DNA from: a virus
Taxonomy: Monodnaviria; Loebvirae; Hofneiviricota; Faserviricetes; Tubulavirales; Inoviridae
IMG/VR virus record: IMGVR_UViG_2529292923_000001
Reading direction: 5' to 3' (one strand)
Length of the DNA: 7,781 nucleotides
Below, in pieces: positions 7,212-7,552 of the stretch (its first letter is position 1; each line of letters opens with the position of its first letter). The translations under genes and the position numbers were made by a program. Below the pieces are notes generated by a model that was not told where the DNA came from, did no database searches, and worked only from the letters and a program-made list of their open reading frames with translations.

Positions 7212-7552
7212 TCCCTTTTCCTGCATTCAGCAGACTACCCGCGAAGGATCGAAAGGATACGGTTTAACTGGAAACCCTTGAGTTTCCGTTGACTCTACCC
7301 CCGTGTTACAAGACGGGGGTTTATCCCTGCCCAAACACGCCAAGAATCATCATCATCGTGATTATCGTCCGTCGTCACGGCAGGCGCTCCCGTCCTCGAC
7401 CCTGCGGGCGGGTGCGGCTGGCGTTCCTCCGTCCTCCTCCCCTTATCTTCTTCATCGGCGTGCTGGCGTCTCGGATACGAAAATACGATTTAAAAAATAG
7501 CTAAAGGAATGTAGAGTCCCGACAGGATTAACAACATCAGCTCAGAAAAACC

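Follow-up and report, generated by a model that had tools for sequence, protein, structure and literature searches.

How a filamentous phage resident in the chromosome of Escherichia coli has both strands of its genome copied is the question raised by a non-coding segment at positions 7212-7552 of the IMG/VR virus record IMGVR_UViG_2529292923_000001 (Inoviridae), a stretch of 7,781 nucleotides (nt) whose full length is called here the window. The segment sits between the 3' end of a small regulator gene and a small open reading frame (ORF). A preliminary description, made from the sequence alone, had presented it as GC- and pyrimidine-rich, structured and devoid of any credible ORF, and had offered as candidate roles an origin or packaging signal, a long structured 5' leader for the downstream peptide gene, or a small RNA. 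The first of these guesses was right, i.e. the segment is the origin region of the phage. As argued below, it can be read, with a probability of about 60%, as a cis-acting replication region in which a plus-strand origin, ori(+), is combined with a complementary-strand origin and which acts as DNA on the viral strand. All the large ORFs, dedicated to morphogenesis and replication, are carried by the minus strand of the window in the typical inovirus order and, as the viral strand of inoviruses has the sense of the genes, the packaged strand is the minus strand.

Regarding its composition, the segment has 52.5% GC and 53.7% pyrimidine, compared with 41.6% GC in the gene core (1534-7211), which agrees with what had been described; the enrichment is concentrated in 7344-7470, where both GC and pyrimidine reach 63.8%. 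The CATCAT and CCTCC runs are present as (ATC)4 at 7348-7359 and CCTCC at 7425-7440, respectively. The designation of structured must be qualified: the 8-bp stem with its 8-nt loop (7297-7304 / 7313-7320) and the 6-bp stem GGAAAC/GTTTCC (7270-7275 / 7282-7287) do exist and fold, but the segment as a whole folds no better than shuffled sequences (z = -0.7 and -1.7 for the minus and the plus strand, respectively), so that structure is local. The direct repeat CGAAGGAT / CGAAAGGAT is also there, though it starts at 7242 (and ends at 7258), one base off the 7241 initially given, and the main feature of the GC-rich part, namely an imperfect 48-nt hairpin at 7377-7424, had been overlooked. As for coding potential, mechanical plus-strand ORFs of 71 and 65 amino acids (aa) can be drawn in the segment, but RefSeq annotates none in any matching genome and the homologues are open in differing frames, in line with the segment being non-coding; a small protein was considered and rejected, since the frames lack conservation and every one of them is shifted in the related plasmids L008 and L155, where two 1-nt deletions compensate each other.

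From BLAST against E. coli genomes and plasmids, the segment appears as a mosaic of two modules, 7232-7341 (module 1) and 7344-7470 (module 2), each of which is found singly or together with the other in further inovirus prophages and in the non-coding DNA of circular plasmids of 2.0-2.8 kb.

The probable plus-strand origin

That the region is an origin, with ori(+) located at the 8-bp hairpin of module 1, is very likely. The argument starts from CTXphi of Vibrio cholerae, since its initiator RstA is the best characterised relative of pII, the cognate initiator encoded in the window (33% identity over 92% of the pII length). RstA nicks the CTXphi plus strand in the intergenic region Ig-1, adjoining rstR (PMC8265649), and does so between G and T in an apical loop (PMC4439123). 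Near the 3' end of rstR, CTXphi carries the hairpin ACCCCCGT-CTAGTATT-ACGGGGGT (L249 555-578), the stem of which is identical to that of the window hairpin ACCCCCGT-CTTGTAAC-ACGGGGGT and the loop similar. The distance from the nick hairpin to the stop codon of the regulator is 86 nt in the window vs. 78 nt in CTXphi (rstR), and that to the start of the Rep gene 603 nt (pII) vs. 542 nt (rstA). The 24-nt nick-hairpin pattern occurs once in the window, for zero occurrences expected from 200 shuffles.

Beyond this pair of phages, the nick-hairpin pattern is present in 79 viral-contig stretches of IMG/VR. Among the 77 newly fetched IMG/VR contigs carrying it, an RstA/pII (Rep_trans) homologue is encoded on the strand of the hairpin in 57, on the opposite strand in 2, and no match was obtained in the remaining 18; in the same-strand cases, the median distance from the hairpin to the downstream Rep gene is about 530 nt. 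Both the match to the hairpin taken as that of the CTXphi plus-strand origin and this linkage to RstA-type Rep genes across viral contigs bear out the origin role initially put forward. Besides, module 1 is 100% conserved in L149 and L153, two phages that possess the same Rep_trans module but differ elsewhere.

By homology with the mapped CTXphi nick, pII is predicted to cleave the minus strand between G7309 and T7308. A second and smaller hairpin follows the nick hairpin on the viral strand, 9 nt to its 3' side, and CTXphi has a small hairpin of its own at this relative place; in the plasmids L005 and L009, the 7270-7287 stem is kept and the loop changed. Together with the direct repeats at 7242-7258, this 7270-7287 hairpin provides candidate Rep-binding elements. 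In the mechanism proposed, pII, as an RstA/Rep_trans homologue, would recognise the hairpin 7297-7320 and nick the minus strand at 5'-CTTG/TAAC-3', with the small hairpin and the repeats on the 3' side probably serving as accessory or binding elements. The nick would then prime rolling-circle synthesis and, in a tandem prophage, the presence of two nick sites would permit the release of one unit as a single-stranded circle.

The overall likeness to Ig-1/ori(+) of CTXphi thus covers the gene arrangement, with a Rep_trans initiator divergent from a small regulator and an origin just past the 3' end of the latter, the identical 8-bp stem with the same G/TA step in its loop, as well as a folded phage attachment site (attP) with dif-like sites and tandem prophages at dif. 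The differences are the E. coli host, Rep proteins that are only 33% identical, a small ORF between the origin and attP and the DNA 5' of the nick hairpin, which is non-homologous to that of CTXphi and consists here of a separate cassette shared with plasmids.

The GC-rich cassette and the complementary strand

This cassette, module 2, is found at 80-96% identity in small rolling-circle plasmids, in other inoviruses and in a satellite prophage. The plasmids concerned are of 2012-2097 bp with a G2P-like HUH Rep (L002, L008, L155), of 2565-2651 bp with a Rep_1 protein (L006, L007) or of 2751-2760 bp with a distant Rep_trans-like protein (L004, L010), while the phages include an inovirus with another Rep (L023) and inoviruses at other integration sites (L150, L152); in the inoviruses with other Rep proteins, pIV is 73-100% identical to that of the window. 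The satellite prophage, 3.56 kb long and residing in strain 700481, encodes a II/X-family Rep and no morphogenesis protein. The module thus keeps company with Rep_trans, distant Rep_trans-like, Rep_1, G2P-like and II/X proteins as well as with a 411-aa Rep. Its orientation is fixed: in all the hosts examined, the Rep or gIV gene occupies the minus strand when the module is taken as reference. The intergenic region that holds module 2 is invariably the large one running from the end of gIV to the replication module. A diverged variant, 2b, stands in for the version of the window, 2a, in phage L153 and is shared with the plasmids L005 and L158. The idea suggested by L153 that the variant of module 2 tracks the morphogenesis module was dropped, since 2a occurs in the satellite adjoining an inovirus whose pIV is 40% identical to that of the window. 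A scan of the genome contigs of species representatives with an 18-base degenerate core pattern returned no true homologue, chance matches in GC-rich genomes having swamped it, and a metagenome scan returned nothing beyond copies of families already known here.

Within module 2, the hairpin 7377-7424 displays the loop ACCCTG on the plus strand, i.e. CAGGGT on the minus strand, and its apex, CT(C)CCGTCCTCGNCCCTGCGGGC(G)GG, is invariant in the 16 aligned copies. In the inner helix, four pairs are changed on both sides and none of the regular pairs is broken; the covariation score is 0.081 vs. 0.038 in shuffles, none of 500 reaching the observed value, and it does not exceed 0.039 with slid partners. 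The compensatory changes took place in two independent lineages: in L008/L155, CAG/CTG became CGC/GCG and one base was deleted from each arm, whereas in L152/L022, CGC/GCG became TGC/GCA, two mismatches were closed and the stem was extended by 15 bp into a 78-nt near-perfect palindrome. The covariation analysis across related elements, which had been recommended as a check, therefore speaks for a genuine hairpin. In the window, it is flanked by direct repeats; in L149/L151 and L152, the flanks are complementary instead of directly repeated, and the stem is longer by 7 and 15 bp, respectively. G-T wobbles were considered as a guide to the folding strand and discarded, the only wobbles falling at positions mismatched in other copies.

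The position of the hairpin is also informative. On the displaced strand of the window, module 2, with this hairpin at its centre, precedes the nick hairpin by 57 nt on the 5' side and would thus be among the last DNA displaced. Such a position is classical for the single-strand origin (sso) of rolling-circle plasmids and for hairpins B and C of the Ff phages; in the plasmids and the satellite considered here, the position of the plus-strand origin is inferred only. Looking at RstA-type phages at large, 61 distinct origins were folded over the 150 nt that precede the nick hairpin on its 5' side, and z was below -2 in 28% of them, for a chance expectation of a few per cent (an estimate of ours, not a computed value), which argues that a structured element 5' of the nick is recurrent in these phages.

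Taken together, the GC-rich part behaves like a Rep-independent cis element on single-stranded DNA. A fixed orientation, independence from the type of Rep, mobility as a cassette and a hairpin with a conserved apex are hallmarks of the plasmid sso and of the Ff minus-strand origin. From these four hallmarks and from its position 5' of the nick, module 2 is tentatively taken as the complementary-strand origin, an assignment for which the odds stay slightly below even. The complete inovirus next to the satellite of strain 700481 lacks module 2 while the satellite has it, which counts against the module being the packaging signal of that helper. In the mechanism proposed, module 2 would be displaced late and fold, whereupon host enzymes would prime the synthesis of the complementary strand; because it would depend on the host rather than on the Rep protein, the cassette could move among inoviruses, satellite prophages and small plasmids.

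Known systems offer points of comparison. In the intergenic region of the Ff phages (f1/M13/fd), hairpin A is the packaging signal, hairpins B and C the minus-strand origin and hairpin D the plus-strand origin. Like Ff, the phage of the window has one non-coding block after gIV with all the cis signals, acting on the viral strand, and a structured element directly 5' of the nick hairpin, where the Ff minus-strand origin sits. Unlike in Ff, the region is interrupted by two plus-strand genes and attP, the initiator belongs to Rep_trans rather than II/X, no promoter-like -35/-10 mimic was found, and there is no sequence similarity. Likeness also extends to ssoA/ssoU-type cassettes, in that module 2 is non-coding, orientation-dependent, independent of the Rep type, swapped among replicons with unrelated Rep proteins and endowed with a hairpin whose apex is conserved and whose stem covaries. 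Small enterobacterial rolling-circle plasmids (pHW126, pIGRK and pIGMS31) reportedly carry dispensable palindromes resembling single-strand initiation (ssi) sites (PMC6854812). BLAST of module 2 gave no similarity to any plasmid beyond 14 records, and the module is therefore not an ssi site described in F, R100, R6K or ColE2. The complementary-strand origin of phage G4, a primase-dependent ssi site, reads GGACGGCGAAAGCCGCCGTCC-CTA-CTG, to be compared with CACGGCAGGCGCTCCCGTCC-TCGACC-CTG on the plus strand of the window; in contrast with G4, this resemblance is borne by a strand that is never the free single strand of an inovirus.

Several points weigh against the reading of the segment as a double origin. 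Regarding module 2, the viral-strand hairpin of the window does not exceed shuffled sequences in stability (z = +0.4, as against -2.9 for the plus strand), and the covariation of the 7377-7424 pairs does not reveal which strand folds. A promoter scan found in module 2 no promoter-like -35/-10 of the M13/ssoA kind, and a G4-type primase site was rejected, the motif being on the wrong (plus) strand and the CTG on the viral strand lying within the stem and being lost in L008/L155; module 2 thus shows no known priming signal that would point to RNA polymerase, primase or PriA. Besides, a host-dependent sso alone does not predict the strong co-occurrence of plasmids and prophages reported below. 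Regarding module 1, the predicted position of the nick is transferred from CTXphi, and the presumed identity of the ACCCCCGT hairpin with the 'second hairpin' mapped in CTXphi follows from sequence and from the single G-T step in the loop. The nick hairpin is also found on small plasmids without a Rep_trans protein (L005, L006, L158, L009 and L159) and, lastly, a related and apparently intact inovirus does without modules 1 and 2.

Packaging, other rivals and the small plasmids

The most serious competitor, albeit a rather unlikely one, would make module 2 the morphogenetic (packaging) signal, and the small plasmids and satellites natural phagemids spread by the inovirus, their single-stranded circles being made by the plasmid's own Rep or, via module 1, by the phage Rep. 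Its strength is the co-occurrence: 8 of the 14 strains with a module-2a plasmid below 3 kb also have a chromosomal inovirus or satellite copy, for 32 of 5426 genomes overall (Fisher p = 1.7e-15), and several different plasmid-prophage combinations are represented among the pairs. The sole E. coli plasmid with variant 2b comes from a strain whose prophage is also 2b, and a 2012-bp plasmid, typed non-mobilizable and 99.8-100% identical throughout, is present in five strains, four of which have one of three different chromosomal elements bearing the module. Recent exchange is no explanation for this pattern, since the copies residing together are not those that resemble each other most. Four of the 14 plasmid-bearing strains, however, have no second copy of module 2a anywhere in their genome, and strain 700481 provides a further point against it, since the only complete inovirus by the satellite is without modules 1 and 2 and has in common with the satellite the attP palindrome only, and with the plasmid nothing. 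Along the same line, module 2a of this satellite is 90-92% identical to that of the window, yet the pIV of the adjoining inovirus is only 40% identical. Some plasmids without a Rep_trans gene bear modules 1 and 2 as one block, which would suit phagemids, and so would the palindrome of L152/L022. The Ff packaging signal is of similar size. A long viral-strand hairpin right after gIV, as is the rule in Ff, was not found in module 2, of which only the L152/L022 variant is long (78 nt); in the window, module 2 lies 563 nt past the gIV stop and a far stronger hairpin, that of attP (z = -13), is nearer to gIV. Rolling-circle plasmids of such kind normally have an sso; in the 2012-bp plasmid, only about 600 bp of non-coding DNA are available to accommodate it, and the intergenic stretch with module 2 is by far the largest of the non-coding stretches. 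An experimental precedent for packaging is available from Shewanella, where the inovirus Dolos packages the rolling-circle plasmid pDolos (bioRxiv 10.1101/2023.11.28.569023). The functions of complementary-strand origin and packaging signal could coexist, as they are not mutually exclusive, and hitchhiking could occur whatever module 2 does.

The remaining rivals are far weaker. It is improbable that module 2 is an accessory part of the plus-strand origin, either an enhancer bound by HU/IHF or a rolling-circle termination element, similar to the inverted repeats that precede the nick within the 167-bp ori(+) of CTXphi. This ori(+) does possess inverted repeats up- and downstream of the nick and requires HU (PMC4439123), a long imperfect hairpin lies just 5' of the CTXphi nick hairpin, and a structured segment recurs there in RstA-type phages; but module 2 is found without module 1 beside Rep_1, G2P-like and II/X-family Rep genes, and the identical Rep_trans module goes with different versions, 2a in the window and L149 and 2b in L153. 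In addition, module 2 has no similarity beyond chance to the upstream hairpin of CTXphi: homology between them was examined and rejected, the alignment score being at chance for 2a and marginal for 2b. Even less credit can be given to the segment acting as RNA, with 7297-7320 terminating or attenuating the regulator transcript and the rest serving as a leader of the small ORF or as an RNA of the small or antisense type. One strand does carry the regulator, the segment and the small ORF together, TTTAT follows the 7297-7320 hairpin and, on the plus strand, module 2 folds more stably than shuffled sequences (z = -2.9), but the 7297-7320 hairpin fails the criteria of the terminator scan, which over 6800-7781 reported only one site, 7594-7613, inside the small ORF and outside the segment. 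Neither the long 5' leader nor the small RNA proposed in the preliminary description finds support: the segment has no promoter-like site and no match in Rfam at E <= 1 (one chance match fell outside it), and the gene downstream is not conserved among hosts, where the modules are flanked by convergent or unrelated genes and no transcript context is conserved. A related phage does have a short hairpin between its regulator and peptide genes, but none of the DNA of the segment. The 7297-7320 hairpin sequence, for its part, goes with Rep_trans genes in 57 viral contigs. Finally, module 2 could be thought of as a mimic of an origin of transfer (oriT), by which relaxase-less plasmids are mobilised by conjugative ones, in view of small plasmids that, although typed non-mobilizable, hardly differ between unrelated strains, and of the apex conservation of the hairpin, likewise typical of oriT sites. 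This is hardly credible, as the association is with inovirus prophages and not with any conjugative plasmid type, module 2 is located in the replication region of phages and satellites, and its copies on plasmids of ~100 kb belong to a truncated phage fragment beside IS3, away from the annotated transfer genes. The combination of ori(+) with a complementary-strand origin remains the preferred reading.

The small plasmids deserve a description of their own. The nick hairpin is at 820-843 in L005, 880-903 in L006, 1137-1160 in L158, 1288-1311 in L009 and 629-652 in L159. The first three are Rep_1 plasmids, whereas L009 and L159 are pBT3-like plasmids of Salmonella (Typhimurium) and Citrobacter; because the related Rep_1 plasmid L007 is without it, the hairpin is unlikely to be the own origin of the Rep_1 plasmids. 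Beside module 2, all the small plasmids encode, whatever their Rep family, a conserved protein of 75-82 aa (MTANDRSIPE...AEFVKR), at 493-738 in L002 and with homologues in L004, L005, L006, L007, L008, L010, L155 and L158, for which no Pfam or PHROG match was obtained. In L002, L005, L007 and L158, a GC-rich hairpin and the motif AACCTTGATACCGG occur just upstream of this gene on the coding strand; a CTTGATA motif upstream of the gene, which varies among plasmids, could be the plasmids' own nick site, going by the pC194/phiX174 consensus. Larger plasmids, namely p14EC033c and six similar ones of 90-170 kb, contain between sodC and IS3 a fragment corresponding to window 7344-7603 at 88% identity (L003 5001-5261), i.e. 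module 2, the spacer and the start of the small ORF, which appears to be a truncated inovirus remnant. In strain 700481, the satellite (L154, NZ_CM129038.1 622000-646000, 13175-20106) consists of two tandem copies of the 3.56-kb replication-only element, each comprising attP, module 2a, a regulator, the II/X-family Rep, a single-stranded DNA-binding protein gene and two further ORFs but no morphogenesis gene, and directly follows two tandem copies of the complete inovirus, the Rep of which is a 667-aa gpA-like protein; the arrangement resembles RS1 or TLC of V. cholerae. As in inovirus satellites (pDolos/Dolos, RS1 and TLC) and laboratory phagemids, small replicons here share cis elements with a complete inovirus in the same cells, and a satellite or phagemid relationship is plausible. 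Unlike with pDolos/Dolos, the E. coli relationship is a putative one and the element shared may be an origin and not a packaging signal.

The phage unit and its significance

The window represents a single unit of an E. coli inovirus that is CTXphi-like and inserted in tandem copies at dif. It is 100% identical to a tandem prophage in E. coli O166:H15 strain JNE21-003, where two tandem copies adjoin hipBA at the dif locus, and seven E. coli chromosomes match its part 7150-7781 at 100% identity. When the window or the segment was compared with 50,697 phage records by megablast and blastn, no match was returned. The features of the unit are gathered in Table 1.

Table 1. Coordinates of the origin modules, the neighbouring elements and the genes of the phage unit in the window.
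Feature	Position	Strand	Basis or remark
Secretin pIV	253-1533	-	ORF
pI/Zot	1766-2491	-	ORF
pVI-like protein	2503-2787	-	ORF
pIII	2862-4385	-	ORF
Major coat protein	4695-4970	-	ORF
Small single-stranded DNA-binding protein	5123-5458	-	ORF
pII, cognate initiator	5468-6694	-	Rep_trans family, Pfam PF02486 E = 1.9e-21; RstA homologue
Small regulator, 71 aa, in rstR position, divergent from pII	6996-7211	+	ORF; WP_000712390.1; matches phrog_2503
Non-coding cis-acting region, CTXphi Ig-1 counterpart	7212-7552	-	Gene layout, pII-RstA homology, synteny with CTXphi
Module 1, RstA-type plus-strand origin (ori(+), double-strand origin), very likely	7232-7341	-	Aligns with CTXphi Ig-1
Direct repeat CGAAGGAT / CGAAAGGAT, between origin hairpins and regulator stop	7242-7258	.	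Conserved in L153, partly in L005
Accessory hairpin GGAAAC-N6-GTTTCC (candidate)	7270-7287	-	Folds; small CTXphi hairpin at same relative place
Nick hairpin ACCCCCGT-CTTGTAAC-ACGGGGGT	7297-7320	- (reads 7320-7297)	Stem identical and loop similar to CTXphi hairpin L249 555-578
Predicted pII nick, G7309 / T7308, 5'-CTTG/TAAC-3'	7308-7309	-	Homology with mapped CTXphi nick
Module 2a, GC-rich non-coding cassette, candidate complementary-strand origin (sso); core 7362-7437	7344-7470	-	Shared with plasmids, inoviruses, satellite
Left flanking direct repeat TCGTCCGTCGTC (minus strand GACGACGGACGA)	7365-7376	.	Repeat family D2
Imperfect hairpin, ~17 Watson-Crick pairs, three 1x1 mismatches, two bulges	7377-7424	.	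Fold; covariation
Right flanking direct repeat TCCTCCGTCCTC	7425-7436	.	Repeat family D2
AT-rich spacer to small ORF, 36.6% GC	7471-7552	.	Composition; conserved with ORF start in fragment on ~100-kb plasmids (L003)
Small hydrophobic ORF, 46 aa, right boundary of region	7553-7693	+	Homologues at same place in L153 and inovirus A of strain 700481
attP palindrome, two inverted dif-like sites	7695-7781 continuing into 1-20	-	z = -13; ~100-nt hairpin on viral strand

In view of its positional homologues in L153 and in inovirus A of strain 700481, the small hydrophobic ORF is probably a real gene. Its homologue in L153 is annotated, with 57 aa, and RefSeq leaves the ORF unannotated in the window-type prophage; it has a weak ribosome-binding site and no promoter-like site of its own. 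Further on, the near-perfect attP palindrome, in which a GC-rich hairpin (7728-7766) stands between the two inverted dif-like sites, looks like a folded single-stranded attP of the CTXphi type for XerCD, and the prophage junctions lie inside it (window ~7765 and ~13); from the foldable attP with dif-like sites and these junctions, the element is a CTXphi-like, Xer-integrated filamentous phage. The palindrome may be the packaging hairpin as well, as it is the sole sequence common to inovirus A and the satellite prophage of 700481.

Other observations relate to the variability of the unit and of its relatives. Compared with the RefSeq prophage, pI/Zot of the window shows a 99-nt in-frame deletion after 1598 and two single-base insertions in homopolymers (about 1756 and 1786), resulting in ORFs 1766-2491 and 1530-1757, and this copy is either defective or affected by sequencing errors. 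In pIII, the repeat region rich in Gly/Thr/Ser (window 3142-3340; GTGS units, as read on the coding strand) varies in length among strains, the gene being 1524 nt long in the window vs. 1650 nt in JNE21-003. Related prophages away from dif, L150 (3264-3959) and L152 (2110-2808), lie beside sanA and ybiB, and in each of them the prophage end combines module 2 with an adjacent gene of the phospholipase D family.

What these data bring to the biology of filamentous phages is, to begin with, an origin region of the CTXphi Ig-1 kind in which the ori(+) hairpin is pinned to the base. The dif-integrated filamentous prophages of E. coli, which have no entry in the phage collection searched, thereby gain a mapped candidate origin and a predicted nick site; the RstA nick hairpin proves to be conserved from Vibrio to Escherichia, and prophage activity becomes predictable from tandem copies, each with an origin. 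Besides, inoviruses, a satellite prophage and tiny plasmids, which are found together in the same strains, have one non-coding module in common. Going further, a new concept could be considered, although it is somewhat doubtful at this stage, in which the cryptic rolling-circle plasmids, 2-2.8 kb in size, that E. coli and its relatives harbour would be satellites of CTXphi-like inoviruses, i.e. natural phagemids, a set that could include the pBT3-like plasmids of Salmonella ST313 and Citrobacter bearing the RstA-type nick hairpin. If this were true, the acquisition of module 2, sometimes with module 1, would let the phage Rep and morphogenesis proteins replicate, package and spread these plasmids, the travel between strains of plasmids typed non-mobilizable would be explained, and the same network would include, in integrated form, the 3.56-kb replication-only prophage of strain 700481. 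For the question of plasmid packaging, the cis signal is now delimited to about 80 bases and, if plasmids do ride filamentous virions, this would be a simple and overlooked route of transfer for non-mobilizable-typed plasmids of enteric pathogens.

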